Shown here: one piece after another, positions 19,493 through 61,923 of the stretch
How positions within the stretch are numbered: position 1 is the first letter of the stretch
How the letters are laid out: each line of letters begins with the position of its first letter
Source: Candidatus Fimenecus sp.
GTDB taxonomy: Bacteria > Bacillota > Clostridia > Oscillospirales > Acutalibacteraceae
Reading direction: 5' to 3'
NCBI GenBank assembly: GCA_045655645.1
Contig: JAZOPS010000051.1
Span: 50,536-114,535, forward strand
Length of the DNA: 64,000 nucleotides
Made by a program: the position numbers and the translations under genes
Notes under the pieces: generated by a model
What the model was told of the DNA's origin: nothing
Databases searched by the model: none
Seen by the model: only the letters and a program-made list of their open reading frames with translations

Positions 19493-19505
19493 ATCTTTCT
19501 ACTCC

Positions 19506-21089
19506 TTATTTTGTCATTTTAATTTTTTCATTATATTTGAATTCATTACCTCGATTACCAAGATGGAAAGTAGATTTATTTCTTACTTTGAACCACATCT
19601 TTTTCTCAATTCTTGAATAATTGATATTTTTTGATTTCATATACATCTTGAAGAAATCAAGGCGTTTATAGAAATCTTTATAATTCTTAAACTTATCTTC
19701 AGTCCACGCACCCTCGGCAAATGCAAAGATTCTTGGATATACTGCAAACTGCCAAGCCTTTTCGTTATCAATCCATTCTGACCAAGATTCAAACTCTACA
19801 CCAAGGACTTTTTTATCATTTACAAATCCTGATTTTGCTACATTGTAGTTGTAAACTTTTTTAAGCGGTGCACTTGCATAAGAATAATCAAAATACAAAG
19901 TAGGACAAGTTGACACAATAAATTTGCGCTTATCGTTTTCTTTTTTTACCCATGCAGGTGTGCGATAAATCCAATAGTGACCGATAATATCACTGTCTGT
20001 ATTTTCACCGATACCATCGTTCCATTCTATACTTTTTTTACCTAATTTTTTGAGCATATTATTAAGACGATTATTAAAATACACCTGCAAATCTTTACCT
20101 TTTTCAAGACCAAGTTCTTGCATTTTCTGTTTACATACGGGACAATCTCTTTCCCAGATTTTATGACCTTTTGCCGCTTCGTCACCACCCATGTGGAAAT
20201 ATTCATACGGAAACAATTCACAAACTTCTGTGAGAAGCTTCTCAACAAAATCATAGGTTTCTTCTTGACCAGCACAAAGGACATCTTTAGTAATTCCGTT
20301 TTCACAGAATACTTCATATTCGCCTTTAAGACAAGAAAGTTCAGGATAAGCCGCAAGAATAGCAACAGTATGTCCTGGTAAATCGATTTCAGGAATTATA
20401 TCAATACACAAGTTCTTTGCATATTCAACAATTTCACGGATTTCACTCTTTTTATAATAATGAAAATACTCTTTGCCATCCTTTGACATTTCAGGATAAA
20501 GAAGATTGTTACATCCACCAAGAAGTTCATACTTTCTTTTACTACTGATTTCGTTGAGAAGTGGAAAAACTTCACTTTCAATTCTGTACCCTTGGTCATC
20601 ACTTAAATGCCAATGAAATTTGTTAAGTTTCAATAAAGCCATACTGTCAAGTGCACGCTTTACTGCATCAACACCAAAAAAGTGACGTGCTTCATCCATC
20701 ATTCCACCACGATATGAGAATTTGGGATAATCATAAATATCCGCACCATTTAAAACTGCAATACCGCTCTCTTTTTTTGATTGCATAATCATAATTTTGA
20801 GAGTTATAGCACCATAAAATGCACCGTTCACATCTGATGCACTAATTACGATACCATCATTGCTGATTTTTAATTTATAACCTTCACTATGAATAGTATT
20901 ATCTTTATTAATTTTGATTGCACCATTCTGCGCATCTTTTTTTGTCTGTAAAAATTGAGAAAGATAATTCCCTGCTTTTACAAAATCAGGATTGCAAAGA
21001 ACAGCAGTTTCAGGTGTTACTGTGTATGTACCATCTAAAACTTCATATTTTTGTGGTTTAGGAATAATGCTATATTTAGGTGCTTTCAT
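19506..21089 (-). CDS. GH20 beta-N-acetylhexosaminidase
   Basis: Motifs HWHLSDDQGYR and FHMGGDEA (catalytic D-E). No signal peptide seen. Confidence 0.85.
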   Translation of the reverse strand: MKAPKYSIIPKPQKYEVLDGTYTVTPETAVLCNPDFVKAGNYLSQFLQTKKDAQNGAIKINKDNTIHSEGYKLKISNDGIVISASDVNGAFYGAITLKIMIMQSKKESGIAVLNGADIYDYPKFSYRGGMMDEARHFFGVDAVKRALDSMALLKLNKFHWHLSDDQGYRIESEVFPLLNEISSKRKYELLGGCNNLLYPEMSKDGKEYFHYYKKSEIREIVEYAKNLCIDIIPEIDLPGHTVAILAAYPELSCLKGEYEVFCENGITKDVLCAGQEETYDFVEKLLTEVCELFPYEYFHMGGDEAAKGHKIWERDCPVCKQKMQELGLEKGKDLQVYFNNRLNNMLKKLGKKSIEWNDGIGENTDSDIIGHYWIYRTPAWVKKENDKRKFIVSTCPTLYFDYSYASAPLKKVYNYNVAKSGFVNDKKVLGVEFESWSEWIDNEKAWQFAVYPRIFAFAEGAWTEDKFKNYKDFYKRLDFFKMYMKSKNINYSRIEKKMWFKVRNKSTFHLGNRGNEFKYNEKIKMTK

Positions 21090-22590: not shown

Positions 22591-22812
22591 AAAAAGACGC
22601 AACAAGTGCGTCCATAAAGGGTCCCCCACAAAGTCGGTTGCGGTGAATACTAACCTGCATGTTAAGCAGGTGGGTGCTTTCCGTTTTGTATCTGTGCTCC
22701 CTTCGTCCGTCAATATGACGGGAGGTCTGCTCCCAACAAAGCGAGTATAAGCTCCCTTTTAGTGAGTGTTGGGTTAATATCATCCGCAGTTATCGGGCTT
22801 CGCAGGGTATTA
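22591..22812 (-). ncRNA. Candidate structured small RNA with its own intrinsic terminator (rod-like fold; possibly 6S RNA)
   Basis: Non-coding gap, more G+C-rich than its flanks. Minus-strand CCCUGCGAAG (22798-22807) pairs with CUUUGUGGGG (22624-22633). CUGCGGAUGAUAUUAACC (22772-22789) pairs with GGUUAGUAUUCACCGCAA (22638-22655), giving a long closing rod about 185 nt end to end. Terminator stem at 22596-22612 plus a T-run. The class is not verified. Confidence 0.4.
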
Positions 22813-26571: not shown

Positions 26572-26630
26572 TATTGTATCAAAATGTTTTATATGTTAAA
26601 ATTATCCTATCAAAATTAGGTGGGATTCTT

Positions 26631-36600: not shown

Positions 36601-38601
36601 TTATTCAGCAATAACTTCGCGTTCATCTTCTTCGTCTTTTTTTCGTTTAAAGATAATTAGAATAACGAAAAACAAGCTCAAAGCCATTAATGAAATAATT
36701 GTAATTGGTTGACCAAAGTACTCAACGAATGTGTATGGAATATCAATAATAGGAACATCTTTTTTAGGTCCTCCGATTGTGATTACAACGCCATCGTTAT
36801 CTTCGTCACCATCAGGTGTTCCGTCATAATCATCAATATGTCCGTCGCCGTCTGAATCGGGGTCTTTTGAATCAGTGATACCATCATTATCGTCATCGTC
36901 GTCATCCTTATCAGGAATACCGTCGCCGTCTGTATCCTTTTTATCATCATCGCCGTCATCGTCATTGTCACCATCATAAAGTGGTCCGTCAGGAAGACCA
37001 TCGTTATCGTCATCGTCGTCTTCGATATCAGGAATACCATCACCATCAGTATCACGCTCCGGACTGTCGGAGTCATCTACATCAGGAATTCCGTCACCGT
37101 CGTCGTCTGCGTCCCTATCGTCATCAATGCCGTCATTGTCGTCATCATCGTCGATTCTGTCAGGTGTACCATCACCATCTGTATCACGGTCAGGATGGTC
37201 AGGGTCGTCCCTATCTGGAATGCCGTCGTTATCATCATCTGAATCGTCGTCATCCTTTATGCCATCGTTATCGTCATCGTCGTCGATTCTGTCAGGCGTA
37301 CCATCACCGTCTGTATCACGGTCAGGATGGTCAGGGTCATCTTTATCGGGAATACCGTCGCCATCATCATCAGGGTCAGGAATATTATTTAAATCATCAT
37401 TTCCATCAGGAAGACCGTCGTTGTCATCATCGTCGTCAACGCTGTCGGGAATACCGTCACCGTCTGTATCACGGTCAGGATGGTCAGGGTCGTCCTGGTC
37501 AAGAATACCGTCGTTATCGTCGTCAGTATCTTTTGTATCAAAAATACCGTCGTCATCATCGTCAGGGTCACTTCTATCAGGAACACCGTCACTATCTGTG
37601 TCACGGTCAGGATGATTCGGGTCGTTTTTATCAGGTATGCCGTCGCCGTCGTCATCTAAGTCATTGTCGTCATCGAGTCCATCATTATCGTCATCAGGGT
37701 CGATTGCATCCGGCAAACCATCGCCGTCTGTATCACGATTTGGGTGGTCAGGGTCATCCTTATCAAGAATTCCGTCACCATCATCATCAGGGTCAGGAGT
37801 TACATTAGGATTTGGGATATCAGGGTCACCATCAGGGTCTTTAAACTCAGGAACATTAGGGTCCCCCGGGTCAGTATCGTCTGGGTCCTTATCAGGAATT
37901 CCATTCTTGTCATTATCTACAATGCTAAAATCTAAATAAATCTTTTCAGCATCAAAAGGAACAAGTACAACTTGTGTGCCATCAGATGCAGTTGTAAGAG
38001 TTACTTCTTTAACATCGGCTCTTTCAATTACAAAAGAAACGTTTGCAAGAACTTCGCCATCTTTTGAAATTGTAACAAGATGTTTACCATCAGCAATATC
38101 TTTCACAAGATATCGTCCATCAGCATTGGTTTTTGCTGTTACACCGCCAAAGTCAAAGCTTAGCTCGGCACCTTTGACTTCTTTCTTACCAAGATAAACA
38201 GTACCTTCAATATCCACCTTGCTACACTTATCATTAGGGTCAGAAGAACATTTTTCAAAAACAACTTTAACAAAGACATCATTAACAATATTTGTAATTT
38301 TAAGATTGCCACTGACAAATTGTTCTGTAACATCAGCGCCATTTACTTCAATGCTTTCAATGTGATAGCCGTTTTCATAAATTACGCCAAGGTCGATTTC
38401 ACCAAATCTATTAATATTAAATTGTGTACCATCAGGGCATAACTTACCATTTACAAGCACATAACCGCCATCATTATAAATAACGGTAACTGAGTGCTCA
38501 TAAGGAACTGATGTTGAAATAACCGTATTCCCGGCAAATGCTGGTATCGCCATAACAAACACCATAGCTAAAGCCACAATGATACTTATTGCTTTTTTCA
38601 A
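36601..38601 (-). CDS. Secreted, C-terminally tail-anchored protein with a CarboxypepD_reg-like Ig module and a long array of thrombospondin type-3-like calcium-binding repeats
   Basis: TTG start behind an AAGGAGGTGG RBS. Signal peptide MKKAISIIVALAMVFVMAIPAFA. Ig-like block GTVYLGKKEVKGAEL...NADGRYLVKDIADGKHLVTISKDG. About 23 DxDxDG-type loops by my count (DTDGDGIPD, DDDNDGLPD...). C-terminal TM segment ISLMALSLFFVILIIF plus KRKKDEEDE. No LPXTG. Confidence 0.8.
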   Translation of the reverse strand: MKKAISIIVALAMVFVMAIPAFAGNTVISTSVPYEHSVTVIYNDGGYVLVNGKLCPDGTQFNINRFGEIDLGVIYENGYHIESIEVNGADVTEQFVSGNLKITNIVNDVFVKVVFEKCSSDPNDKCSKVDIEGTVYLGKKEVKGAELSFDFGGVTAKTNADGRYLVKDIADGKHLVTISKDGEVLANVSFVIERADVKEVTLTTASDGTQVVLVPFDAEKIYLDFSIVDNDKNGIPDKDPDDTDPGDPNVPEFKDPDGDPDIPNPNVTPDPDDDGDGILDKDDPDHPNRDTDGDGLPDAIDPDDDNDGLDDDNDLDDDGDGIPDKNDPNHPDRDTDSDGVPDRSDPDDDDDGIFDTKDTDDDNDGILDQDDPDHPDRDTDGDGIPDSVDDDDDNDGLPDGNDDLNNIPDPDDDGDGIPDKDDPDHPDRDTDGDGTPDRIDDDDDNDGIKDDDDSDDDNDGIPDRDDPDHPDRDTDGDGTPDRIDDDDDNDGIDDDRDADDDGDGIPDVDDSDSPERDTDGDGIPDIEDDDDDNDGLPDGPLYDGDNDDDGDDDKKDTDGDGIPDKDDDDDDNDGITDSKDPDSDGDGHIDDYDGTPDGDEDNDGVVITIGGPKKDVPIIDIPYTFVEYFGQPITIISLMALSLFFVILIIFKRKKDEEDEREVIAE
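36790..37930 (-). repeat. Degenerate coding tandem repeats (about 129-nt / 43-aa super-repeat of three DxDxDG loops)
   Basis: Repeating unit DPDHPDRDTDGDG.PD..DDDDDNDG..D..D.DDDGDGIPD.D. It produces long spurious ORFs in the other frames and on the other strand. Confidence 0.85.
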
Positions 38602-38647: not shown

Positions 38648-39148
38648 TTATGATTCAGAATACTCTACAGTATATGTGATTGTACCTGTATATGCACCAA
38701 CTGGAGCAGCTCCGAACCCTGCAACTGTAATTGTTGCGTCTGTTCCACCCATATCAGATGCTTTTGCACCATCATTTACGCCTGTAAATGTTGTTTCGCC
38801 TGCACCTGTAAGTGTATATTTAAGTGTTGCTGTTGTATCAGCATTAGTCATAACACCGTTGTTTGCGTCATCAGTATCAGCATCATAAGCAACATCAACA
38901 TTAACCGAAGCACCAACAAGAAGTTGTGATGTAACTGAATAGCTTGCATCATAAGCTGTTGTTTCGTCACCCCAAACAACTGAAATTGTTGCAGGGATTT
39001 GAACTGTGTATGATGCGTCTGTTGTTGCATCATAAGTTGTTTCAACATTAACAATATTTTCACCGACAACAGCTGTTTCTGCAAATGCAGGAACTGTAAC
39101 TGCCATCATCATAACGAGTGCTAATGCAATAGAAATAATCTTTTTCAT
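38648..39148 (-). CDS. Small secreted beta-rich protein, paralog 1 of 7 (unnamed family)
   Basis: Signal peptide MKKIISIALALVMMMAVTVPAFA. Family motifs YTVQIPATISVVWG, YSVTSQL..GASVNVDV and VGAYTGTITYTVEY. AAGGAG-type RBS. Closest of the seven to the C-terminal domain of the giant. Confidence 0.8.
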   Translation of the reverse strand: MKKIISIALALVMMMAVTVPAFAETAVVGENIVNVETTYDATTDASYTVQIPATISVVWGDETTAYDASYSVTSQLLVGASVNVDVAYDADTDDANNGVMTNADTTATLKYTLTGAGETTFTGVNDGAKASDMGGTDATITVAGFGAAPVGAYTGTITYTVEYSES

Positions 39149-39167
39149 AATAAATTACTCCTTTGAA

Positions 39168-39656
39168 TTAAGCGATTTCTGCTGTAAATGTAAGAGTGTC
39201 TGTGTAGCTATCGATTGCAACTGATTTCCAATCGTTAAGAGCAACTTTAACTGTTACCTTTGCTGTATCATCATAAACTGCTGAATCTGCTGTGAATATT
39301 GCATTTTCAAGTGTGTAACCAAGTGAGCCACCTGCTGTGCTTGTCATTTTATAAGCACCATCAGCGTCAGTTACTGTAACCTTAACTGCGTCACCTGTTT
39401 TAAGCTGACTTGCAACTGCATATTCAATGTCAGTTGAAGTTGCTTCCCAAGGAAGTGTCTGAGTTGCAGGGATTGTAACTGTATACCAAGCTGCCTCAGT
39501 ATCACCAATACCGTCATTGTCAGTATCTTTCTTTGTATCTGTATTGATTATTGTATCACTACCTGCATTTGAGCCACCTGTAACAGCTGCAAAAGCAGGA
39601 ACACAGATTGCCATCATCATTACAATAGCCATAGCAATTGCTAAAATCTTTTTCAT
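39168..39656 (-). CDS. Small secreted beta-rich protein, paralog 2 of 7 (has an N-terminal DTDNDGIGD calcium-loop motif)
   Basis: Signal peptide MKKILAIAMAIVMMMAICVPAFA. Motifs YTVTIPATQTLPW, YAVASQLKTGDAVKVTV and W..VAIDSYTDTLTFTAE. Confidence 0.8.
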   Translation of the reverse strand: MKKILAIAMAIVMMMAICVPAFAAVTGGSNAGSDTIINTDTKKDTDNDGIGDTEAAWYTVTIPATQTLPWEATSTDIEYAVASQLKTGDAVKVTVTDADGAYKMTSTAGGSLGYTLENAIFTADSAVYDDTAKVTVKVALNDWKSVAIDSYTDTLTFTAEIA

Positions 39657-39682
39657 TTTAATTACCTCTTTTATGAAATCTA

Positions 39683-40165
39683 TTAAATATCTGTAAGCTC
39701 TGCATTGAATGTTAATGTTCCCACATAATTATCAATTGATGCTTTCTCCCAATTAGTAGTAGGAATCTGCACCATTACGCTTGATGTTTCTGCGTTTTCA
39801 GGAAGAATAACAGAATTTTTTGTAGTGTATTCTGTTGTACCCTCTTTTAAAGAATATTCAAGGAATGCGGTATTAGTAGCATTTTTCATTTTACCATCAG
39901 TATCAGCAGTTACCGTAACTTTTACACCTTTTCCTGTTGCCAATTGACTGTAAACTGAATATTCAATTTCTTCTTCTGTTTGTCCCCAAGTAATTGTAGC
40001 AGTAGCAGGTATTGTTACTGTAAAAGATGCACCAACTGTTGAACCGTCAACTCTTACAGGGGTACTGCCCATTGATGTAGTTGCATCAAGAGTGGCTGCA
40101 AAAACTGGAACGCAGATTATAAACATCAGCACAAATGCCAGAGCTAATGAAAGTATTTTTTTCAT
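39683..40165 (-). CDS. Small secreted beta-rich protein, paralog 3 of 7
   Basis: Signal peptide MKKILSLALAFVLMFIICVPVFA. Motifs FTVTIPATATITWG, YSVYSQLATGKGVKVTV and W..ASIDNYVGTLTFNAE. Confidence 0.8.
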   Translation of the reverse strand: MKKILSLALAFVLMFIICVPVFAATLDATTSMGSTPVRVDGSTVGASFTVTIPATATITWGQTEEEIEYSVYSQLATGKGVKVTVTADTDGKMKNATNTAFLEYSLKEGTTEYTTKNSVILPENAETSSVMVQIPTTNWEKASIDNYVGTLTFNAELTDI

Positions 40166-40187
40166 ATTAAGCCCTCATTTCAAACAA

Positions 40188-40658
40188 TTAAGCGTTAACG
40201 AGCTCTGCTGTAAATGTGATTGTTCCTTCATAAGTAGCGATTGAAGCTGCTGCCCATTCACCTGCATCAATTGTAAGGTTGAATGTGTGAGACTCATTGT
40301 TTACAACTGCACTATTTGCAATACCTGTTGTAGCGTCAGCAACTGCAAATTCGATTGTTTCGTTTGCAGCGTTTGTAAGGTCTTTTGCCTTTTCAAGTGA
40401 AACCTTAACGCGTTTGTCGGTCTGCACCTGGCTTGTAATCTTATACGCTCCTGCTTTTGTTGTATCACCCCAAGTAAGGTCAACTGCTGCAGGAATTTCA
40501 ACTGAGTATGTTCCATCGCCTTTGTCTGCAACACCGTCAACTAAAACTGTTGAACTGCCTGACTGTGCATTAACATCAAGTGTTTTTGTAGCAAAAGCAG
40601 GAACACAAATTGCCATCATCATAATGAGGGCAAGAACTAATGAAATAATCTTTTTCAT
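40188..40658 (-). CDS. Small secreted beta-rich protein, paralog 4 of 7
   Basis: Start trimmed to ATG 40658 (MKKIISLVLALIMMMAICVPAFA), 8 nt after AGGAG. Motifs YSVEIPAAVDLTWG, YKITSQVQTDKRVKVSL and W..ASIATYEGTITFTAE. Confidence 0.8.
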   Translation of the reverse strand: MKKIISLVLALIMMMAICVPAFATKTLDVNAQSGSSTVLVDGVADKGDGTYSVEIPAAVDLTWGDTTKAGAYKITSQVQTDKRVKVSLEKAKDLTNAANETIEFAVADATTGIANSAVVNNESHTFNLTIDAGEWAAASIATYEGTITFTAELVNA

Positions 40659-40682
40659 AAAATGCATCTCCTGACCATTAAA

Positions 40683-41159
40683 TTATGCATCAACAACTGT
40701 TGATGTGAATGTAAGTGTATCGCTATATGTATCAATAGCTGCTGCATTCCAAACTGTTGCATCAACATTGATACTATAATTAAATGTTGCATTTGTAACA
40801 ACAGGACCTGTTGTTTTACCTGTAGTTGTACCGCCAAGAGTATAAGCAAGAGTAGCGTTATCAGCGTTTACCATGTTAAGTCCGTCGCCTGTATCAGCAA
40901 CCACAACCTGAACTGCTTTACCTGTTCTAAGGTTTGAATTAACTTTATAATCAAAGTTTGTTGTTGCAGTGCCCCAAACAATGTTCATTGTTGCAGGATA
41001 AGTAACTGTATAAGTACCATCGCCTGTAATTGCAGATGTATCTGTCTGAACTGTTGCAGTACCTGACTGTACATTAGCGTTGAGTTCTTCTGCAAAAGCA
41101 GGAACCATAACAACCATCATCATAACGAGTGCCATTACTAAAGAAATAACTTTTTTCAT
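40683..41159 (-). CDS. Small secreted beta-rich protein, paralog 5 of 7
   Basis: Signal peptide MKKVISLVMALVMMMVVMVPAFA. Motifs YTVTYPATMNIVWG, YKVNSNLRTGKAVQVVV and W..AAIDTYSDTLTFTS. Confidence 0.8.
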   Translation of the reverse strand: MKKVISLVMALVMMMVVMVPAFAEELNANVQSGTATVQTDTSAITGDGTYTVTYPATMNIVWGTATTNFDYKVNSNLRTGKAVQVVVADTGDGLNMVNADNATLAYTLGGTTTGKTTGPVVTNATFNYSINVDATVWNAAAIDTYSDTLTFTSTVVDA

Positions 41160-41189
41160 AATCTATATCTCCTTTTATTATTTATAAAA

Positions 41190-41690
41190 TTATACTCTTT
41201 CAATTTCTGCTGTATATGTGATAATATCACTGTATTCTTCAACAACTGCTGTATTCCAGTTATCTGCAGAAATTGCAACTGTAACCGTCTTTGTTGCTGC
41301 AGGGTAAATTGTAGGAACATCTGCTGAGAAAGTAATGCCTTCACCTGCAAGTGCGTAAGGGATTTCATAAGCACTGTCAACAGTTTTCATAACTAATGCG
41401 CCTGACACTGTAACTTTAACTCTGCCATCTCTCTTAAGGTGTGATTCAACTGTGTATGAAACATCAGTTTCTTCTGTACCCCAAGGAATTGTTGTGTCAG
41501 CAGGGATTGTAATTGTGTATTCTTCTGCTTCTTTGTCGCCGACACCATCACCATCAGTGTCTTTTAATGTTGATGTGTCGATAACTACGTCTGCACTGTC
41601 AGGATTAGCGTTAAGTTCAACTGCAAATGCTGGAACCATAACAGCCATCATCATAACAAGTGCCATTGCGAATGATAAAATCTTTTTCAT
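41190..41690 (-). CDS. Small secreted beta-rich protein, paralog 6 of 7 (has an N-terminal DTDGDGVGD calcium-loop motif)
   Basis: Signal peptide MKKILSFAMALVMMMAVMVPAFA. Motifs YTITIPADTTIPWG, YTVESHLKRDGRVKVTV and W..AVVEEYSDIITYTAE. Confidence 0.8.
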   Translation of the reverse strand: MKKILSFAMALVMMMAVMVPAFAVELNANPDSADVVIDTSTLKDTDGDGVGDKEAEEYTITIPADTTIPWGTEETDVSYTVESHLKRDGRVKVTVSGALVMKTVDSAYEIPYALAGEGITFSADVPTIYPAATKTVTVAISADNWNTAVVEEYSDIITYTAEIERV

Positions 41691-41724
41691 AATATATTAC
41701 TCCTTTTTAAGATTAAAATACATA

Positions 41725-42174
41725 TTAAACTGCGTCGGTGTATTCAGCAGTGAATGTTAAAATGTCACTGTGTTTACCACTTGCAGCGTAAAGCCATTCT
41801 GTTTCTTCAACCTCTACTGAAAGAGTGAAACTTTCACCATAATCACCGGGGAAGAAAGAGATGTCTTCGCTAAGCAAACTGTATGCAATAGTTTTTTCGC
41901 TATCCGCCTCGTTTACCAGTTTGAAATCATTTTGTGAAGAAACTGAAACCTTTACCATCTTACTAGGTTCAATAAGCATTTTGGTTGCCGTTACTTCACC
42001 AATGTCCATAGCAGTTGTTTGCCACGGAATTTCAATATCTGCAGGATAAGTTAGTTCGTATTCTGCTCGGTCAGCCTTTGTGGAAATTTCCATAGACTGA
42101 CTACTAGCGAATACCGGCATAATGCAAAGTACAAGCATTACAGCCGCTAATCCTACTGAAAAGAATTTTTTCAT
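41725..42174 (-). CDS. Small secreted beta-rich protein, paralog 7 of 7 (most divergent)
   Basis: Start trimmed to ATG 42174 (MKKFFSVGLAAVMLVLCIMPVFA), 9 nt after GGAGGAG. Motifs YELTYPADIEIPW, KMVKVSV and W..AASGKHSDILTFTAE. Confidence 0.75.
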   Translation of the reverse strand: MKKFFSVGLAAVMLVLCIMPVFASSQSMEISTKADRAEYELTYPADIEIPWQTTAMDIGEVTATKMLIEPSKMVKVSVSSQNDFKLVNEADSEKTIAYSLLSEDISFFPGDYGESFTLSVEVEETEWLYAASGKHSDILTFTAEYTDAV

Positions 42175-42195
42175 TTCTGTCATCTCCTCCCCTTA

Positions 42196-45100
42196 TTAAC
42201 TTGTTATGTCGACTGTATAAGTCAACTGCGTACTATATGCGCCAACAGGAACGCTGTTCCAACCTGTAACTGTAATGCTTGGTGCATTGGTTGGTTTTGT
42301 TCCATCGGCTACATCGCCCGTAAATCTTTCTGTACCAAAATTAGCCTTTGAATAAGCTAATTCATAAGTAACTCCTGTGTCGTCATTGATAAGTTTATCA
42401 GTTCCATCATTGCTTACTGAGCTTACGCTTACTAAAAGCACATTACTACCAAGCGTTGCTTTAACAGAATACGAAACATCAACAGGACCGTTTGTATCCC
42501 AATCAATATCAACTTTTGCAGGGATTTCAACTTCATAGATGATTGGGTCTGTACCATTTGTTGACTGGAAAACAACATCAACTTCTATTACTTCAAGAAT
42601 ATTACTTGAATCTGCAAGAACTTCTGAAATATCTGTTCCGTCAGCAGTTTTCTCTGCCACAACAGCAGAATCAACTGCATAGAATTTAAGTGTGTTTGTA
42701 TAAGTTGAACCTGTCGGCACTTTTGCTGCCTCGGATGCGTCAACACTAATTGTATAAGGATACCTTGTAATGCTTGATGAGTCACCATTGTTATAAGAAG
42801 CAACCCACGCTGTAACTATTCCATCTGCATTCTGATAGTCTACAAGACCATCTGCGGTAACACCGTTATACATCAAGTCTTCGAAAGCTTTGTATGTTGA
42901 ACCGCCTGTTTGAGTCCATTTAAGGCTTGACTGTGCATAAAGTTCAACACTTCTGTTAAGTCTTGTTGCAACATAACTTAAGTCGATATATGCAGTATAT
43001 TGCATTTTTTCCGCTGAATCGTTATTAAGCACAATTTTTTCAAGTGCCGCGTTAGATTCATTTACTGATGCAAAGCCCTCTATATGTGGTAAGAGAAGTG
43101 CTAGGTCTGCATAAGCGTAGTTAAGTTCATCAACGAGAGCATATCGTCTTAAGAATGCCTCATATTGACCTAAACAATACTCAATTTCATTAAGAGTAGA
43201 TGTATCAAGCACCGTTTTTGCCGCAATTTTAGACGAAACATCTGAATATGCATCTTTAATTCGTTTTTCGTATGTAACGATACCACCTAGAACAGTTTCA
43301 CCTGCTTTTGGTACAATAGTTGTTGAGTTATCATAAATAGCTTCCGCAGCATCGTACATATTCATATATGCGGCAGCCGTGTCAGTATCATCAGACAAAA
43401 ACATCTTACCAAAAACGCTTATATCGGCATACATATCTGTATAGTATTTCAGAGCGTTTACAGTATCTCCATTTTCGTCTGTAATTTCTGCTTTATAACT
43501 AACCATTCTCAAAAAGTCTTTTGCATCAACTACTCCGTCACCATTGTTATCATCTTCAGTGTCAATGATTCTGTCAGCATCTTCGTCAGAATGAGAACTC
43601 AAGCCATAAATATTTATGATGTTTGACTTAAATGTTGCAACATCTGCGATGATACCGTCTTTTTCAACGCCCTCATGAACATCTGCATCGCCGCCAATAA
43701 GTATTGCACGATTTGCAGCATTATAGGCATTGTAAAGTGCATTATATTCATCCGTGTACCCTGATTCAAAGGTTACGCCGTCTTTATACATAAATGCATT
43801 TCTTTCTGCAATACTTAGTCGGTGTAAACCTTTTTCATAAATTGTAACTACCTGAGCCGCTTCTTCAATACTTGCAAAGCCTAATTGTTGTAAATAATTT
43901 TCTTTGTGTTCTTTATACAAATCATGGATAGATTCACTGTTAACAGAGTACGTTTTTGCTACTGCTGAAATTTCAGCTATATCTGTTTGCAGTTGTTGTA
44001 TCGCTGTAGCATCCGCTGTTGCTGTGTAATAAGGTTGCCATTGCTCTTTCTTTATTTCGTTAGTGTAGTCCGTATAAAGAGCTCTGTATTTTTTCTCAAG
44101 TATTTCTTCTTTACAGTATTTAACTTCAGGAATTCCTTTTTGGTAATCCGAAAGTGCTAAAAAAGCATTATTACATGCCTCAAATGATGCCTTGAATTCT
44201 GTCTCCGAAGCATACGGGTCAATAGTTGAAACCATTTTTTCAAAGTTATTTGAGTCAACAGTCTTAACTCCAAAATACTCATCCATATTAGTAATATAGA
44301 TTCCATTATCCTGATTTAATTCGCCGTTACAGTTTGTGTTATTACTTACACGAGTTTGACATTTAGGGTCATAAGTGAAGCCTAAACCATCAATAACAAC
44401 TTTCTTGCCCTCGTTATTATTAGACTCATCCCAAACCGAAACCTTAACCTGTTTAATCTTATATCCATCATCAAGAATGTTGTCAAGGTATTCAAAGTTT
44501 TTATCCAGATTAGCCACACCGCCATCAGTTGGAATTCTAAAGCATGTAAGAGGAATACGAATAAAGCCTTTGTAACCTTGTAATGTATTAAGTTCAGAAG
44601 GCGCAATTGTACAAATACCAGGGTCAACTTCTCTATAAAATGTATGTGCTGCCTCAATATCAGTTTGCGTAATTTTTAGCTGTTGTTTTTCCCATTCACC
44701 ATTTTTATCAAGAAGATAAATAACCGGGAATTCACCCTCTCTGCCAGCACAGAAATAACAGTTTACATCTTTTCCATTTGAATCAGAAAGAATAAACTTA
44801 ACGTTAAAATTAAGATTGCTTACCTCTGAAAAGTCAACATACATTACGAAAGAATTAGGAATAACACCTTCACCATATCTAGTTTTAACTTCTTCTTCCG
44901 TACCTTGCGAAGCATTAGTTTTAACTGCAATACCACTCAAATCAAGTCCGGGAAGATTTCCCCAAGTATCTGCCTCTGCACCTAAATAGGTTGTTGAAAG
45001 AGTAGCAATTTTCCAGTCTTTATTTGCAGGGTCGCATACCAGATTTCCCTTAAGGTTAATCATTGCACCTAATGAATTATTAAATCCTTTATTTGTAATC

Positions 45101-47652
45101 TGAGCATCCATTCTTGAGAAGTATGTTCCCAAGCTACTATCAACAGTTTCACCTGTAGGTCTATAATCGTACGGTGACCAACCAATAGCTGTACCGCCCC
45201 ATTCACCAGGTTGGTCGATAACCTTACCCGAAACATATGTTGTGAAATTACCTGTACTATTTATATCGGTAGGTTTATTGTCTTGGTATGCAGGATAGTC
45301 ATCATAGTACATATCCGACAACTGACCGTATGAATAATTTGTTTCAAAGTCGTTGAATGGGATAAATGGATAAGCACCGATTGACTGACCTGTCTTAACC
45401 TCTTCACCAACAATAAAATCATAAAGTTCAAGGAATTTTGCTTTTGCATCTGCACCAAGCAATTCGTGGTGAGAAAGGTTAAATGTTTCATAAATTGCCA
45501 TCAACTGTTTAAGTGTTGACTGTAATTCTTTATCTGTATGGTCTATAAACTCAGGATTGGGGAGTTTTTCAATTTCATTCTCAAAATAAACAACGGCATT
45601 GTAGTTAGATGCAGCATCATCTGAATAAACAAAACCATGGAATTGCTCGACTAATTTATATCTATTATATGCCTCTGTATGGCCCAGAGTTTTCAACTTT
45701 TCAATAGCTTGTTCAACTTTGTCTTCATTTGAAAGAGCTGAACTGTTATTTATGCCAAAACATTCAATATAATTAATGATAATGTCATCAATCATATCCT
45801 TTGCACCAAAGTCGTTAAGTGAAGGAATTTCACCAAAATATTGCATTATATATTGTGCAACTGCCTTTGGAACTTCAGTAGTTCTGTCATAGAAGCCTGA
45901 CATTTTGATACCATAAGTACCACTATTATTGTTAGATATATTAACTTCCGAAGGGAATGCTAATGAGGAAGTTGAAACTACATATCCATTAGCATCAAAA
46001 TCAGCGCTACTACCAATATTTTTTTTGCAGAACATTACTTGGTCAATGTAGAAAGATTTATGAACTGAGTCCGCTGACCAATCTGCAACCTGAACACCTG
46101 CGGAAACAAGGTCTTCAATAGCAAATTGAGGGTCTGTAACTGTATATGTAGTTCCACTTACCGAAACTACATTAGCATCACTTAGAATTTTACCCATTTC
46201 ATGAGTATTTGTTTGGAAAATTCTAGTTGATTTCTCAGTACGGTCATAAATAATATATGCATTGTTTATATTTGTTCCTGCTGTGTTTACCTTAAATCCA
46301 ACTTTTGAATCATAAGTCTCTGATGCTACTGTTCTTGTATTGCCCTCAGCATCTTGAAGGACCAATGTTGAGCCTGATGGGAAATAGTGCTTATTGGCAT
46401 AAGCGTTAAGGCTATTTGCATTACCATTACCTTCACTTTCCCAGTTGCCCATATCATTATCTGCAACAATATATTGGTCAGATTGTAAAAGAAAGTAATC
46501 GATAGGGATACGAACAAATCCTTTATAACCCGAAAGATTTGTGAAATAACCATCAGTCATCGAGGTTGATTCCCAAAGGCCATCAGCATTCTGAATATAA
46601 ATTCCGTTGCTTATTGTTCCCGTGTTTTTCCCAGCTACTGCCGCAGTTGAGAAAGTTGTGCCATAGTGTGATGTGTAGTTTGTAGTGTCATCTCTCCAGT
46701 GTTCGACACTTTTTTCGTTAGCTGATAAAGTGAATGCAAATTTATTAATTTGAACACGACTTAAGTCAACATAAAACCAAACTTCTTCAGCATTTGTAAA
46801 ATCATAGTGGTCACGGCTCCATGTAGTTGTTCCTACATAAGGTGTTCCGTTGTATGCATTAGCAATCCAATAACGATAGCCAGCACTACCATTATAACCC
46901 ATGCCAGCCATCTGACCATTAACATCAATTAACTCCGCACTCTGACGTTCGGAATAGTCTGGTACCGTTGCACCGTTATTAGACTGCGAATTGCTCTTAT
47001 CAACATCCGCATTACCCTTTTGCTCAAAAAGAAGCATTTCACGAACAATCCAGCTCTCATTAGGAGAAAAGTCGTCGTTAATAATGTAATAAGGTGTTTC
47101 TGAAAGGAGTGTATGAATTTTATCTGATACCCAACCATCGCTATCTACAGCCTGAATTGATATGTCATAACTTGACTCAATTTTATAGCCTTCAAGTCCT
47201 GTGAATGCACCCGGCCAATAATAGATTGAGTTAGGCAAGTTGTTTCCTTCTGTATTGTCAACTGTAAATGTTCCTCCTGCAGGAGTTGTAGATTGACTTA
47301 CATCAATATTTTCTGTCCAGATTGGTTCGTGATTACCGTCATCATCCATTCTTGTAATTTCAAAAATGTAATTTGTAATCCTCTTTTTAGATGGACTTGC
47401 TGCAGTATAACTATCCCATGTTGCCGCAGGGGTTGCATGTGGGAATGAAACCTTTATACTACCATCAACATTAAGAGTTGCAATAAAGGATGTATTAGAC
47501 GCAGCATTGTTGCTACCGTCACCCCAATATGGTGCAGGGTCATAAGCACCTCCACCGATGGCTCCAGCCATCATAAGTGGAACAGATGTAACAATCATTA
47601 CAACCGCTAATATGAGCGCTATACACTTTTTGGAAGATAATTTTTTCTTCAT
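42196..47652 (-). CDS. Giant secreted protein (1818 aa) whose C-terminal ~125 aa is a copy of the small-paralog domain
   Basis: Signal peptide MKKKLSSKKCIALILAVVMIVTSVPLMMAGA. Two internal homologous modules (YVDLSRV...GYKGFVRIPIDYF and YVDFSEV...GYKGFIRIPLTCF). Long Tyr/Ala/Glu-rich regions that look helical. One EF-hand/dockerin-like loop, DDNNGDGVVDAKD. The C-terminus (YEVEIPAKVDIDW ... VSYSVKATL ... W..VPVGAYSTQLTYTVD) matches the paralog motifs. No enzyme motif recognised. Confidence 0.85.
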   Translation of the reverse strand: MKKKLSSKKCIALILAVVMIVTSVPLMMAGAIGGGAYDPAPYWGDGSNNAASNTSFIATLNVDGSIKVSFPHATPAATWDSYTAASPSKKRITNYIFEITRMDDDGNHEPIWTENIDVSQSTTPAGGTFTVDNTEGNNLPNSIYYWPGAFTGLEGYKIESSYDISIQAVDSDGWVSDKIHTLLSETPYYIINDDFSPNESWIVREMLLFEQKGNADVDKSNSQSNNGATVPDYSERQSAELIDVNGQMAGMGYNGSAGYRYWIANAYNGTPYVGTTTWSRDHYDFTNAEEVWFYVDLSRVQINKFAFTLSANEKSVEHWRDDTTNYTSHYGTTFSTAAVAGKNTGTISNGIYIQNADGLWESTSMTDGYFTNLSGYKGFVRIPIDYFLLQSDQYIVADNDMGNWESEGNGNANSLNAYANKHYFPSGSTLVLQDAEGNTRTVASETYDSKVGFKVNTAGTNINNAYIIYDRTEKSTRIFQTNTHEMGKILSDANVVSVSGTTYTVTDPQFAIEDLVSAGVQVADWSADSVHKSFYIDQVMFCKKNIGSSADFDANGYVVSTSSLAFPSEVNISNNNSGTYGIKMSGFYDRTTEVPKAVAQYIMQYFGEIPSLNDFGAKDMIDDIIINYIECFGINNSSALSNEDKVEQAIEKLKTLGHTEAYNRYKLVEQFHGFVYSDDAASNYNAVVYFENEIEKLPNPEFIDHTDKELQSTLKQLMAIYETFNLSHHELLGADAKAKFLELYDFIVGEEVKTGQSIGAYPFIPFNDFETNYSYGQLSDMYYDDYPAYQDNKPTDINSTGNFTTYVSGKVIDQPGEWGGTAIGWSPYDYRPTGETVDSSLGTYFSRMDAQITNKGFNNSLGAMINLKGNLVCDPANKDWKIATLSTTYLGAEADTWGNLPGLDLSGIAVKTNASQGTEEEVKTRYGEGVIPNSFVMYVDFSEVSNLNFNVKFILSDSNGKDVNCYFCAGREGEFPVIYLLDKNGEWEKQQLKITQTDIEAAHTFYREVDPGICTIAPSELNTLQGYKGFIRIPLTCFRIPTDGGVANLDKNFEYLDNILDDGYKIKQVKVSVWDESNNNEGKKVVIDGLGFTYDPKCQTRVSNNTNCNGELNQDNGIYITNMDEYFGVKTVDSNNFEKMVSTIDPYASETEFKASFEACNNAFLALSDYQKGIPEVKYCKEEILEKKYRALYTDYTNEIKKEQWQPYYTATADATAIQQLQTDIAEISAVAKTYSVNSESIHDLYKEHKENYLQQLGFASIEEAAQVVTIYEKGLHRLSIAERNAFMYKDGVTFESGYTDEYNALYNAYNAANRAILIGGDADVHEGVEKDGIIADVATFKSNIINIYGLSSHSDEDADRIIDTEDDNNGDGVVDAKDFLRMVSYKAEITDENGDTVNALKYYTDMYADISVFGKMFLSDDTDTAAAYMNMYDAAEAIYDNSTTIVPKAGETVLGGIVTYEKRIKDAYSDVSSKIAAKTVLDTSTLNEIEYCLGQYEAFLRRYALVDELNYAYADLALLLPHIEGFASVNESNAALEKIVLNNDSAEKMQYTAYIDLSYVATRLNRSVELYAQSSLKWTQTGGSTYKAFEDLMYNGVTADGLVDYQNADGIVTAWVASYNNGDSSSITRYPYTISVDASEAAKVPTGSTYTNTLKFYAVDSAVVAEKTADGTDISEVLADSSNILEVIEVDVVFQSTNGTDPIIYEVEIPAKVDIDWDTNGPVDVSYSVKATLGSNVLLVSVSSVSNDGTDKLINDDTGVTYELAYSKANFGTERFTGDVADGTKPTNAPSITVTGWNSVPVGAYSTQLTYTVDITS

Positions 47653-47692: not shown

Positions 47693-48511
47693 TTATTTTA
47701 CAATAAGGTCTGTTTTTACTACAAAATTGTTAAGCGGAGTTCTTGCCTGGTCATAAGAATATGGCTGCTGATGAACTATCGCCTTGTATTCGCCCGCTTC
47801 AAGTGAACGGGAAATGTTAAATCTTGAAACTGAATAACCCGGTTGAACAAGCCCTGACTGATAAAGTTTTTCATCGCTTGCATCAATAACACCGTTTTCA
47901 TTGTTGTCAAGGTAGATTGTAAATACTACAAAACAGATATCTTTATTTTTTTCAGAGTTTGAAAGGATAAAGTTCTGCTCAACCTGACCTGCTTTGAAAT
48001 TAATCTGAGCAATACCATTCATTGTGACATTCTTTGAGCCCATATCTTCAACTTTATCTGGTAAATCAAGTTCACCTAAACCTTGTTGCTGATTGACATC
48101 AAGAATACTTGGAGTTGTTGTGGTTGGCTCTTCATCACCACCATCAATCAATATTCCGAGACCTGAAATTAATCCCGCAAGCACTAAAAGGCCAAGCACG
48201 ATTAACATAACAAATGCAAGAATATTATCTTTTTTAACTGCGATAAATGAGCCAGACTCAAGTTCAATATAGCCTATTGTCTTATATCTTGCAGAAGATG
48301 TTGGTTTATAAACTATTTCTTCAATATCATTTGAAGTGATTGTGCCGATTTCATCTTTACCATAAGCCAACTGACCGACAACACGGATACCTCCGTCTGG
48401 ATAAAGAGCTTTCATCTCTTTAGCAGTATAATACCCCTGTTCAAAGCCCGTCTCTTTATTGTAATATAATTCTGTATAGTCGTTACCGTTTTTAATAATA
48501 AATATTGCCAA
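47693..48511 (-). CDS. Bitopic membrane protein: cytoplasmic N-domain, one TM helix, extracellular Ig-like domain with an EF-hand-like loop (first gene of the operon)
   Basis: Start trimmed to TTG 48511, 7 nt after GGGAGGG; the ATG given in the track lies inside the promoter. TM segment ILAFVMLIVLGLLVLAGLISGLGILI, a Thr-rich linker, and the loop DNNENGVIDASD. Confidence 0.7.
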   Translation of the reverse strand: MAIFIIKNGNDYTELYYNKETGFEQGYYTAKEMKALYPDGGIRVVGQLAYGKDEIGTITSNDIEEIVYKPTSSARYKTIGYIELESGSFIAVKKDNILAFVMLIVLGLLVLAGLISGLGILIDGGDEEPTTTTPSILDVNQQQGLGELDLPDKVEDMGSKNVTMNGIAQINFKAGQVEQNFILSNSEKNKDICFVVFTIYLDNNENGVIDASDEKLYQSGLVQPGYSVSRFNISRSLEAGEYKAIVHQQPYSYDQARTPLNNFVVKTDLIVK

Positions 48512-48569
48512 AACGATACCCTCCCAAAAATAAATATAATTGAAGATAATATTACTATTATAACAAAAT

Positions 48570-48598
48570 ATTTTACCCCTTTTTATAATATTTGTCAA
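48570..48598 (-). promoter_or_regulatory. Near-consensus sigma-A promoter of the ten-gene operon
   Basis: Minus strand reads TTGACA (48598-48593), a 17-nt spacer, then TAAAAT (48575-48570). It lies about 55 nt upstream of the TTG start. Confidence 0.7.
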
Positions 48599-48809: not shown

Positions 48810-48896
48810 TGGTGCCGGTGACCGGGGTCGAACCGGTACGGTATCGCTACCACTGGATTTTGAGTCCAGCACGTCTGCCAATTCCATCACACCGGC
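48810..48896 (-). tRNA. tRNA-Leu (anticodon CAA), class II with a long variable arm and a genomically encoded CCA
   Basis: Minus strand reads GCCGGTGTGATGGAATTGGCAGACGTGCTGGACTCAAAATCCAGTGGTAGCGATACCGTACCGGTTCGACCCCGGTCACCGGCACCA. Acceptor stem GCCGGTG/CACCGGC. Anticodon stem CTGGA/TCCAG with loop CTCAAAA. Variable-arm hairpin GGTA-GCGA-TACC. T-loop TTCGACC. Confidence 0.93.
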
Positions 48897-61892: not shown

Positions 61893-61923
61893 ACACACGC
61901 CCCCAATATAATTATACATTGTA

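Follow-up and report, generated by a model that had tools for sequence, protein, structure and literature searches.

Seven small tandem genes in the window, the 64,000-nt stretch of DNA analysed here, encode real, ancient and ordered paralogs that belong to no known family. We lean, with modest confidence, towards the view that they are the subunit genes of an operon building a surface fibre or stalk-like heteropolymer on Candidatus Fimenecus, a single-membrane gut Clostridium. We favour a heteropolymeric surface fibre or complex with subunits in a fixed order, joined by beta-strand complementation; the operon has the look of a pilus or surface-complex system not described before, independent of both usher and sortase.

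A tandem array of small secreted paralogs

Seven tandem ORFs on the minus strand (38648–42183) encode secreted paralogs of 149–166 aa, exactly where the preliminary description had placed them. Intergenic gaps measure 19–34 nt, and an AGGAG-type ribosome-binding site precedes each gene. A family HMM matches all seven copies (E = 1e-43 to 1e-50) and an eighth at the C-terminus of a 1818-aa ORF (42196–47652); nothing else was matched in the whole window. The preliminary description numbered the copies by window coordinates (P1 = 38648, P7 = 41725), opposite to transcription; we number them in the order of transcription. Gene 1 (P7; 41725–42183, probable MKK start at 42174) is of a divergent first-position type and has the shortest N-terminal segment. 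Gene 2 (P6; 41190–41690) carries a Ca-binding-like loop, DTDGDGVGD, between the N-strand and strand A, and gene 6 (P2; 39168–39656) carries a DTDNDGIGD loop. Between them lie gene 3 (P5; 40683–41159), which was used for structure prediction, gene 4 (P4; 40188–40667, probable MKK start at 40658), and gene 5 (P3; 39683–40165). Gene 7 (P1; 38648–39148) is of a last-position type, with F for W and the ending ...TITYTVEY, and is the small paralog closest to the C-terminal domain of the 1818-aa protein (48–61 bits against such domains of giants).

Near-identical signal peptides were confirmed across the array, although the literal pattern written for them fits only two of the seven exactly. The 5´ coding DNA is likewise conserved: the first 69 nt are 64–84% identical among six genes and only 52–58% identical for the 41725 gene, which had been singled out as more divergent. 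The description of small, secreted, beta-rich proteins is supported. The mature parts share 26–50% pairwise identity (25–92 bits), lack Cys in all seven chains and diverge strongly between the motifs, as described. The second of the three proposed motifs stands with its spacing. The first and third are real, with spacings off by one: the x4 of the first is x3 ([YF]-x-[VIL]-x-[IY]-P-A-x3-[ILV]-x-W), and the x3 of the third should be x4 ([WF]-x2-[AVS]-x4-[YH]-x-[DGT]-x-[LI]-T-[FY]-[TN]-[AVS]). The N-terminal segment noted after the cleavage site proved to be conserved family-wide, with the consensus G-D-[VAT]-[ITV]-[VI]-K-T-[DS]-T; all family sequences (100%) have a hydrophobic residue at position 14, and 86% have Thr at position 16. 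Across the family it is not the loops that are most conserved but parts with a structural or interface role: the N-strand, strand A and the C-terminal strand.

The small proteins have no match in Pfam, NCBIfam, PHROG or PDB sequences, and no sequence-level link to the chaperone-usher, TasA or WxL families was found. Clustered at 50%, their family comprises 837 representatives. In the best 150 of them each protein has a single copy of the domain, located without exception at its very C-terminus, and none has in-chain tandem copies; the domain has multiplied as separate genes. In larger members the domain is preceded by N-terminal parts that are giant or consist of BspA-type LRRs, a layout similar to that of two-domain tip adhesins, and giants of 1226–1866 aa with this domain at their end are found repeatedly in the family. 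Members joining LRR or ubiquitin to the domain are orphan genes outside such operons and adjoin peptidoglycan genes (PBP/PAP2 and MurL/Mur-ligase/M14).

Predicted fold and placement of the N-terminal strand

AF2 predicts a beta-sandwich for the gene 3 product (pLDDT 97, pTM 0.84). About 20 of the top 29 Foldseek matches in the PDB are chaperone-usher pilins of several subfamilies (CfaB, PsaA/MyfA/Caf1, CsuA/B, the CsuE pilin domain, PapA/E/G and FimF/G), with weak scores (E = 4e-3 to 1e-1, TM 0.35–0.53); the donor-strand archaeal thread 7pnb is also listed. The earlier suggestion that the N-terminal segment could act as a donor strand is thus supported as far as the fold is concerned, since chaperone-usher pilins, which rely on a donor strand, lead the PDB matches. 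In the AF2 model the monomer forms a complete fold, with its own N-terminus in place at pLDDT 95–96; a self-sufficient monomer, which the preliminary description had named as evidence against strand donation, is thus plausible. Ig-like sandwiches match promiscuously in structure searches.

The N-strand gives the strongest covariation signal in the family, with pair 12-31 at rank 1 and 16-37 at rank 6, joined by 14-29, 12-128, 11-121 and 13-123. These pairs place it between strands A and F, in the donor-strand groove. The register (12-31, 14-29, 19-26), whose turn holds a conserved Gly, is as compatible with a within-subunit hairpin as with a swapped strand. It implies that the N-strand runs parallel to strand F, which in classical chaperone-usher pili is the chaperone-type orientation and not the subunit-to-subunit one. 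We infer that the strand is exchanged between subunits, in trans.

A conserved ten-gene operon

The operon runs from a chaperone-like gene through the giant and the seven small genes to a transmembrane (TM) anchor, and its upstream boundary is a tRNA gene (48813–48896). Upstream of the first gene lies a sigma-70-type promoter-like site on the minus strand (TTGACA-17-TAAAAT, 48570–48598, 11/12 matches), which by its sequence is a promoter of the vegetative sigma-70 type; the 'TTG start' of a 301-aa ORF is its -35 hexamer. The cassette, with five to seven small genes, recurs in two distant loci, L002 and L005, whose flanks are unrelated. Gene 1 scores 134 bits against the first small gene of L002 and 68 bits against that of L005, compared with 31–49 bits against its own paralogs. 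Gene 2 matches gene 2 of L002 (120 bits) and gene 3 of L005 (79 bits), and gene 7 matches the last small gene of both loci (74 bits each). That the first, second and last genes have orthologs at corresponding positions indicates that the array is old and ordered. The preliminary description had offered either heteropolymer subunits or a repertoire of binding specificities; orthology by position in two loci favours the former and disfavours the latter.

The first gene (47693–48514, minus strand; GTG start at 48514 after GGGAGGG) encodes a 273-aa membrane protein with a cytoplasmic beta domain (residues 1–96), a TM helix (98–123), a disordered acidic/Thr linker and an extracellular seven-strand Ig-like domain (170–272). 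Its homologs are 272–280 aa long, and it has no match in Pfam. The AF2 model (pLDDT 85.7) retrieves mostly chaperone-usher chaperones from the PDB, with CsuC as the best match (6fqa_A, E = 7.9e-4) besides FaeE, Caf1M, FimC and DraB; the matching part is probably the ectodomain. Independently of the pilin fold, this neighbouring membrane protein matches the cognate chaperones of such pilins, which supports the donor-strand reading. The best site of a pilin N-strand PSSM in this protein is the last strand, NNFVVKTDLI (8.7 bits, background 4e-4), and the last strand is also the best match in 53 of 78 homologs. The protein is a candidate membrane-tethered chaperone or assembly factor.

The secreted giant of 1818 aa (42196–47652, minus strand) bears the eighth domain copy in its last ~140 aa (about 42196–42630; E = 1.4e-43 at residues 1684–1824), and the rest has no match in Pfam, PDB or PHROG. 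Upstream of the domain, giants have a strand-turn-strand A arrangement of their own, which counts against the fibre reading; in its favour, the best N-strand PSSM match in each C-terminal region lies outside the N-strand position. The protein is a candidate distal or tip adhesin.

The last gene (36601–38601, minus strand) encodes a 666-aa protein that presumably serves as an anchor or stalk. It has a signal peptide of the same type as the small proteins, the mature N-terminus GNTVISTSVPYEH, beta domains with a weak CarboxypepD_reg match, a spacer of 22 Asp-rich DxDxDGxxD repeats (46% Asp; DNA repeat array 36998–37656), and a C-terminal TM helix followed by the tail KRKKDEEDE. Its 59 homologs (140–420 aa, full-length about 300–420 aa) mostly share these ends and have far fewer repeats. 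The best N-strand PSSM match in the window's anchor is at the first mature residue (12.0 bits, background 1.3e-4), whereas in most homologs it is internal. No LPXTG was found near the C-terminus of any of the ten operon products, and none matches a sortase family above threshold.

Proposed assembly, alternatives and known systems

In the proposed mechanism, subunits would be exported by Sec, cleaved after AFA and folded as pilin-like beta-sandwiches whose last strand (...Y-x-D-T-L-T-F-T-A-E) ends at a free C-terminus. The conserved N-terminal strand (consensus VIVKTDT) would dock in the groove between strands A and F. In the assembled state a neighbouring subunit would supply this strand, by donor-strand exchange or a TasA-like runaway strand swap, and the subunits would polymerise head to tail in a fixed order, presumably that of the genes. 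The 1818-aa protein, with the same terminal domain, would be the distal adhesin. At the membrane, subunits would be held or primed by the 273-aa protein, whose extracellular Ig-like domain resembles PapD/CsuC-type chaperones. The fibre would end in, and be tethered by, the product of the last gene, with a C-terminal TM helix as its anchor; the Asp-rich spacer of this protein, probably Ca-binding, would be long enough to cross the wall. Neither usher nor sortase would take part.

An unlikely but serious alternative is a non-filamentous surface complex of the WxL/Csc type, in which the C-terminal domain would dock to the cell wall or to a partner. The wall would bear the giant together with each small protein in one or a few copies, and no long polymer would form; membrane-anchored Ig-like proteins would hold the complex, the N-terminal parts of the giant would be displayed, and strands may be inserted between a TM protein and the domain. 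The operon organisation mirrors WxL clusters (PMC9772566, PMC10599100), the orphan LRR and ubiquitin genes lie beside peptidoglycan genes, the predicted monomer fold appears complete, and on inspection the C-terminal [FY]-T-[AV] that follows Y-x-[DG]-T-[LI]-T looks like a degenerate form of the second WxL motif. However, even at E <= 10 a search of 128 members gave no match to Pfam WxL, nor any to DUF916 or DUF3324 for either TM protein. The dual W-x-L motif does not occur here, one or two small genes are typical of WxL clusters against five to seven ordered ones in this operon type, and the best fold matches are polymerising pilins. Moreover, 99% of Firmicute WxL proteins occur in Bacilli (PMC9772566, PMC10599100).

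It is improbable that the array is a diversified ligand-binding repertoire of independent monomeric secreted proteins without subunit contacts. The strong divergence between motifs, the complete and confident AF2 monomer and a weak profile match to the surface glycan-binding protein BtSGBP-B (E = 0.014) would fit such binders, but a repertoire of fast turnover is hard to reconcile with orthologs kept in position at distant loci. Further points against such binders are the strict linkage to the chaperone-like protein, giant and anchor, the concentration of conservation in structural or interface strands and the single, always C-terminal domain. Cohesins are normally tandem modules inside a single scaffoldin, the opposite of the layout here, and we give very little credence to a cellulosome-type scaffold in which these proteins are cohesin-like and bind partners with dockerins. 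The window does encode an LRR_5 protein with a type I dockerin (58554–61991, E = 1.4e-6), a stretch of the giant faintly resembles a dockerin (E = 0.53), and two cohesins appear at ranks 37 and 43 of the Foldseek list; the cohesin matches are weak (probability 0.10–0.57, TM 0.20–0.40) and well below the pilins, and no family member matches Pfam Cohesin.

The proposed fibre resembles chaperone-usher pili (Fim, Pap, Csu, CFA/I, Caf1/Psa) in its subunits of ~135 aa with a predicted beta-sandwich best matching their pilins, conserved N- and C-terminal strands with a free C-terminus, a large adhesin with a C-terminal pilin domain, several ordered minor subunits per operon and an Ig-like chaperone-matching protein. 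Those systems are Gram-negative, whereas the host here has a single membrane and the operon lacks an usher. Their chaperones have two soluble domains instead of one Ig-like ectodomain with a TM helix and a cytoplasmic domain, and no sequence similarity to the operon proteins was detected. The TasA fibres of Bacillus subtilis, which assemble by runaway strand swap, and archaeal bundling pili or threads share single-membrane cells, beta-sandwich subunits and usher-less donation of an N-terminal strand; in the monomer, this strand can lie on the subunit it belongs to. They are homopolymers of one major subunit, and the operon logic here differs; no family member matches Pfam Peptidase_M73/TasA, and no SipW-type signal peptidase or TapA is present in the operon.

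The closest parallels are the WxL clusters and the Pam pilus of CPR bacteria. WxL clusters encode small domain-only proteins, a large one in which adhesin or LRR domains precede the C-terminal domain, and an Ig-like protein whose C-terminus is a TM helix; for a hairpin strand of the latter protein, AF2 predicts insertion beside the WxL N-terminal strand (PMC9772566, PMC10599100). The clusters of Lactobacillales and Listeria share with our operon the always C-terminal domain, an irregular linker to the N-terminal strand and predicted strand insertion. The operon differs in having no WxL motifs or matches to Pfam WxL, DUF916 or DUF3324, two different TM proteins, no LPXTG partner and a host in Clostridia, not Bacilli. 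Pam pili, reported as exclusive to CPR, have Ig-like pilins and a tip subunit, PapD-like chaperones held in the membrane by a TM helix, and a terminator that starts with a strand at its N-terminus and is anchored by a TM helix at its C-terminus (bioRxiv 10.64898/2026.03.03.709456). Their pilins contain disulfides and have two domains, an N-terminal sandwich of nine strands and a truncated Ig domain, with the donor strand in the linker (bioRxiv 10.64898/2026.03.03.709456), whereas the subunits here are single-domain and Cys-free; the TM helix of Pam chaperones is C-terminal and here precedes the ectodomain. Compared by description, both systems are usher-less and belong to bacteria that lack an outer membrane, and the Ig-like acceptor domains and donor strand of Pam pili would have counterparts here. 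We count this precedent of an usher-less pilus with TM-anchored chaperones and terminator in support of an ordered surface fibre.

The ten-gene unit and its order

The small pilin-like genes occupy the middle of a ten-gene unit on the minus strand, in which the gaps between genes measure 19–46 nt and contain no terminator-like site. A sigma-70-like promoter (48598-48570, minus strand) precedes the unit directly downstream of a tRNA gene (48813-48896, minus strand), which is probably served by a perfect TTGACA-17-TATAAT site at 48942-48914. The first gene encodes a 273-aa membrane protein (48514-47693, minus strand). Its homologs measure 272–280 aa, and the longer ORF that is listed mechanically at this position starts within the -35 box. 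The second gene, located before the seven small genes on the same strand, encodes an 1818-aa giant (42196-47652). The last gene (38601-36601, minus strand) encodes a 666-aa anchor, which comprises a paralog-like signal peptide, beta domains, 22 DxDxDGxxD repeats and a C-terminal transmembrane (TM) helix followed by KRKKDEEDE.

The seven tandem paralogs claimed in the preliminary description are found as described, as minus-strand ORFs within 38648-42183. Each encodes 149–166 aa, is preceded by an AGGAG-type ribosome-binding site and is separated from its neighbor by 19–34 nt. Numbered here in the order of transcription, which reverses the earlier labels, they are gene 1 (P7, 41725-42183), gene 2 (P6, 41190-41690), gene 3 (P5, 40683-41159), gene 4 (P4, 40188-40667), gene 5 (P3, 39683-40165), gene 6 (P2, 39168-39656) and gene 7 (P1, 38648-39148), all on the minus strand. 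Start coordinates place the giant and gene 1 in a common reading frame, and likewise genes 2, 3 and 4. The mature parts are 26–50% identical to each other and free of Cys in all seven proteins, as had been stated. The signal peptides are of the ordinary AFA type; their near identity and the conservation of the 5´ coding DNA are borne out by the first 69 nt, which are 64–84% identical among six of the genes. All three motifs reported for the mature chains are real, but two spacings had been miscounted by one residue and should read PA-x3-[ILV]-x-W and W-x2-[AVS]-x4-[YH]. An HMM built from the paralogs recovers each copy (E = 1e-43 to 1e-50) and identifies an eighth at the C-terminus of the 1818-aa ORF. 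No further copy was detected when the window was searched with the family HMM.

The same cassette recurs in two distant loci with unrelated flanks. In one (L002), the membrane protein measures 269 aa, the giant 1745 aa and the anchor 323 aa, with six small genes in the array. In the other (L005), the corresponding sizes are 276, 1863 and 394 aa, and the small genes number five. The first small gene of the array matches its counterparts with 134 bits (L002) and 68 bits (L005), compared with 31–49 bits for its own paralogs. The second (120 and 79 bits, respectively) and the last (74 bits in both) also match their counterparts, and this positional orthology indicates that the array is ancient and that its order is set, from a defined first to a defined last member. 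Judged from these alignments, the array is neither a recent expansion nor a shuffling repertoire. The signal peptides at 38648-42183, compared with those of L002, exhibit 70–76% amino acid identity within a genome versus 57% between positional orthologs or between genomes. The difference is a modest indication that the 5´ ends have evolved in concert or have adapted to the host's secretion machinery.

Several other features are located in the window. A 6S RNA gene is present at 22619-22811 (minus strand, 62.8 bits). Glycan-degrading genes are abundant nearby (16384-21089, 6459-8195 and 26574-29105), encoding GH18, GH20, alpha-galactosidase and CBM6/35 proteins. This neighborhood fits a gut commensal that forages on host or dietary glycans, for which a surface adhesin fiber would make sense. 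A 1145-aa BspA-type LRR protein (58554-61991, minus strand) bears a type I dockerin (E = 1.4e-6); the organism may possess a cohesin-dockerin display system, and no cohesin was identified in the window.

Architecture of the pilin-like family

The small proteins, the giant and the first gene product exhibit no match to a known family in Pfam, NCBIfam, PHROGs or PDB sequence and profile searches. The anchor yields only weak sub-threshold matches, to CarboxypepD_reg and to an OmpA-family chain (E = 0.0033). When 128 family members were compared with Pfam at E ≤ 10, only signal-peptide artefacts (LPAM_1 and DUF4245) were returned, and no WxL, Fimbrial, Cohesin or TasA family was among the matches. 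The PDB sequence and profile matches consist of Fab chains, which are hit through a bacterial signal peptide, and BtSGBP-B at 0.014. When 1.84 billion cluster representatives were searched with a profile, 837 reached E ≤ 1e-3 and 280 of them E ≤ 1e-10; these are representatives at 50% clustering. The family alignment contains no conserved 7-mer, and a related-locus scan with one paralog as the query matched the source MAG alone, a Candidatus Fimenecus genome of gut Clostridia to which the window is identical. Where the sources give names, these read 'hypothetical protein [Clostridia bacterium]', and no description of this Clostridial pilin-like family was found in the literature.

Among the 150 best of the 837 representatives, the domain occurs once per protein and always at the extreme C-terminus. 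It is never repeated within a chain and is multiplied as separate genes instead, as would be expected if every copy required free termini of its own. This pattern of one domain per chain is unusual for Ig-like adhesin modules. Within these 150 proteins, the smallest class (~140–190 aa) consists of the domain alone, and the giants measure 1226–1866 aa. Proteins of ~460–470 aa contain BspA-type LRRs in the two scanned members with a match, and those of ~240–300 aa contain a ubiquitin-like domain in the one member with a match.

One ubiquitin-type member (P0234, a cluster of 118 proteins) is a 238-aa bacterial protein in which the pilin-like C-terminal domain is fused to ubiquitin of the eukaryotic type (Pfam ubiquitin, E = 2e-26). 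Its gene (9001-9717 in locus L009 and 2819-3535 in locus L010) is an orphan that directly follows MurL and Mur-ligase genes and adjoins an M14 peptidase gene. BspA-type LRR proteins (P0138 and P0153, ~470 aa; 4044-5465 in locus L007) end in the pilin-like domain with its N-strand region included, and their genes are orphans that adjoin PBP-transpeptidase and PAP2 genes. The LRR proteins could be alternative adhesins for the fiber, or they could point to a wall-docking role of the domain.

Predicted structures and the N-strand

The mature form of gene 3 was modeled with AF2 from a 128-sequence alignment. The model (pLDDT 97, pTM 0.84) is a beta-sandwich with strands at residues 25–30, 43–54 and 58–66, several short strands between 72 and 92, and a strand at 97–108. 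A short helix (111–116) leads to the last, F-like strand (126–134) at the end of the 135-residue chain. Confidence is also high for the placement of residues 1–24, where DSSP assigns just two bridge residues. The predicted monomer is complete with its own N-terminus included. A Foldseek search of the PDB yields no match with E under 1e-3. Its best-ranked entries, at E ≥ 4e-3 and TM ≤ 0.53, are nearly all chaperone-usher pilins (CfaB, PsaA, the CsuE pilin domain, PapA, CsuA/B, PapE, FimG/F, MyfA, the PapG pilin domain and Caf1), and a donor-strand archaeal thread is also among the matches. A phage origin was rejected, as the viral fold library returned nothing significant for the model.

The N-strand, the conserved N-terminal segment of the mature subunit, is among the conserved elements of the family. 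Its consensus is G-D-[VAT]-[ITV]-[VI]-K-T-[DS]-T, followed by a variable loop often with D-G. In genes 2 and 6, the loop between the N-strand and strand A contains one DTDGDGVGD-type motif each, which resembles the anchor repeats. Mean-field DCA (289 sequences, Neff 160) identifies residues 12 and 31 as the strongest coupling in the whole protein and ranks 16-37 sixth. Together with further couplings (14-29, 19-26, 12-128, 11-121 and 13-123), these pack the N-strand between strand A in antiparallel orientation and the C-terminal strand in parallel orientation. The site so predicted is the groove in which chaperone-usher pilins take their donor strand. The couplings would suit a hairpin within a single subunit and contacts in trans after a TasA-like strand swap equally well.

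Elsewhere in the operon, the best match of an N-strand PSSM coincides with the first mature residue of the window's anchor (12.0 bits, background 1.3e-4) and with the last strand of the 273-aa membrane protein (8.7 bits, background 4e-4), the latter also in 53 of 78 homologs. In most anchor homologs, the best match is internal, and in the C-terminal regions of the giants it lies outside the N-strand position. The PSSM scans are downweighted because the N-terminal match is not general among the anchor homologs, and their evidence is suggestive only.

In the model of the 273-aa chaperone-like protein (56 homologs, pLDDT 85.7), a beta domain in the cytoplasm is followed by a TM helix, then by a disordered linker and an extracellular domain of seven strands. 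Its Foldseek matches in the PDB are mostly chaperone-usher chaperones (CsuC at E = 7.9e-4, FaeE, Caf1M, FimC and DraB), with other Ig-like domains interspersed, and no Pfam PapD match was found in this protein. Judging from strand count and alignment length, the ectodomain is probably the part that matches the chaperones. At the level of predicted folds, two neighboring genes that match the two partner classes of one machine, each weakly, are hard to dismiss as chance. In the highly conserved cytoplasmic domain (residues 1–96, ~96 aa), numerous Gly, Pro and Lys positions are invariant; the presence of this domain hints that regulation or coupling could act from the cytoplasm. The extracellular part contains a single invariant Cys (C194), and neither the cytoplasmic domain nor the C194 region matches a known family.

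The ectodomain also bears a DNNENGVID loop with invariant Asp residues, which is related to the DTDGDGxxD motif of the anchor. Calcium may take part in assembly, by analogy with archaeal cannulae. The 22 anchor repeats are thrombospondin-type-3-like motifs with 46% Asp, encoded by a DNA tandem array at 36998-37656 with periods of 132 and 285 nt. Compared with 59 homologs of at most 420 aa, the anchor of 666 aa is far longer, a difference suggestive of recent stalk elongation specific to this strain.

Proposed assembly and comparison with known systems

The pilin-like proteins of the locus are secreted and bear one domain per chain. Their operon is conserved and has a defined order, and it also encodes a chaperone-like membrane protein, a giant that ends in the pilin-like domain and a membrane-anchored, Asp-rich stalk protein. 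In the assembly that we propose, the subunits would join head to tail through strand complementation in the A/F groove, the giant would be distal, and the anchor would terminate the structure and tether it across the wall. At the membrane, the first gene product would cap subunits with its ectodomain. We lean slightly towards this strand-complemented heteropolymer. Several observations run counter to it: the subunit is modeled as a complete monomer, the giants possess a strand-turn-strand A arrangement of their own ahead of the domain, and the genes joining the domain to LRRs or ubiquitin are orphans that adjoin peptidoglycan genes outside such operons.

The main rival is a non-polymerising surface complex of the WxL/Csc kind, which we regard as rather unlikely. 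WxL clusters of Lactobacillales combine small domain-only proteins, a large protein that ends in the domain behind adhesin or LRR domains, and an Ig-like TM protein; a mobile N-terminal strand and AF2-predicted strand insertion are also described (PMC9772566, PMC10599100). The operon logic is the same here, with an always C-terminal domain in a cluster of small and large domain proteins, and the likeness in the mode of working is real. However, WxL proteins are defined by two W-x-L motifs and Pfam WxL (PF13731), whereas the present family displays ...I-x-W-G... and ...T-[FY]-T-[AV], and Pfam WxL is matched neither by the 128 members (E ≤ 10) nor by the proteins encoded in the window. The WxLIP partner consists of DUF916, DUF3324 and a TM helix, in contrast to the TM proteins here, which match neither family and are predicted to be Ig-like or beta-rich with TM helices. 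Two other readings fit the data poorly: that the paralogs are monomeric binding proteins seems improbable, and that they are cohesin-like modules seems very improbable.

For a long time, donor-strand pili were believed to depend on the chaperone-usher machinery of Gram-negative bacteria. That the principle works without an outer membrane is demonstrated by TasA, by archaeal threads and by the recent CPR Pam pili. Strand-complemented surface fibers or complexes are known as a principle, and what is new is the family and its host range. Extending the heteropolymer reading beyond this locus, we tentatively propose, as a possibility short of a probable one, that gut Clostridia possess a widespread and unrecognised class of usher-less, sortase-independent heteropolymeric pili. 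These would combine chaperone-usher-like pilins, strand exchange, a membrane-tethered single-domain chaperone, ~1800-aa tip adhesins and a Ca-binding stalk tether. They would parallel the chaperone-usher and Pam systems on the Firmicute side and might link these structurally to WxL clusters. If true, uncultured gut Clostridia, which are abundant human and animal commensals, would have a new adhesion organelle, and hundreds of 'hypothetical' genes (837 unannotated representatives) and ~1800-aa orphan proteins would gain a role. It would also offer a testable model for ordering several subunits in single-membrane bacteria without usher or sortase, and may illuminate the assembly of WxL clusters. 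If the proteins are instead non-polymerising wall-docked modules, they still define a new Clostridial surface-display system.

Sortase-assembled Gram-positive pili require an LPXTG signal and a pilin-specific sortase; among the ten operon products, no LPXTG-like motif is found near the C-terminus and no sortase family matches above threshold. TasA/camelysin fibers are defined by Peptidase_M73/TasA membership in a SipW/TapA context, and no corresponding Pfam or NCBIfam match is present. F-ENA/ENA spore appendages, with DUF4183/DUF3992 trimers, head-neck architecture, hook peptides and a spore context, were rejected in view of the sigma-70-type promoter here. Chaperone-usher pilins, whose Ig-like fold lacks a C-terminal G strand of its own and whose N-terminal extension enters the next subunit, provide the best, albeit weak, Foldseek matches. 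The chain here ends on an F-like strand, and its own N-terminus is confidently placed in the model. No Fimbrial, SCPU or similar Pfam match (seven paralogs and 128 family members) and no PDB sequence match was obtained. Where those systems use a two-domain periplasmic PapD-like chaperone, the candidate here displays just one Ig-like domain outside the cell, carried by a TM helix. The usher is an outer-membrane protein, whereas the host is a Clostridium, and the ten operon products include no usher match or large beta-barrel.

Pam pili, described in a 2026 preprint (bioRxiv 10.64898/2026.03.03.709456) and reported to be exclusive to CPR bacteria, have Ig-like acceptor domains and PapD-like chaperones anchored by a TM helix; their terminator, likewise TM-anchored, bears an N-terminal strand. 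The Pam pilin has two domains, an N-terminal sandwich and a truncated Ig C-terminal domain, with the linker as donor strand, whereas the subunits here are single-domain (~135 aa mature) and Cys-free. The chaperone-like protein is single-domain with a membrane topology opposite to that of Pam, and the anchor is rich in Ca motifs. The resemblance of the anchor's N-terminus to the subunit N-strand is significant in the window's anchor and not general among its homologs. Compared by description, both kinds of membrane-anchored partner, a candidate chaperone and a candidate terminator, are present here by architecture. The Pam pilus is the closest mechanistic analogue of the Clostridial system.
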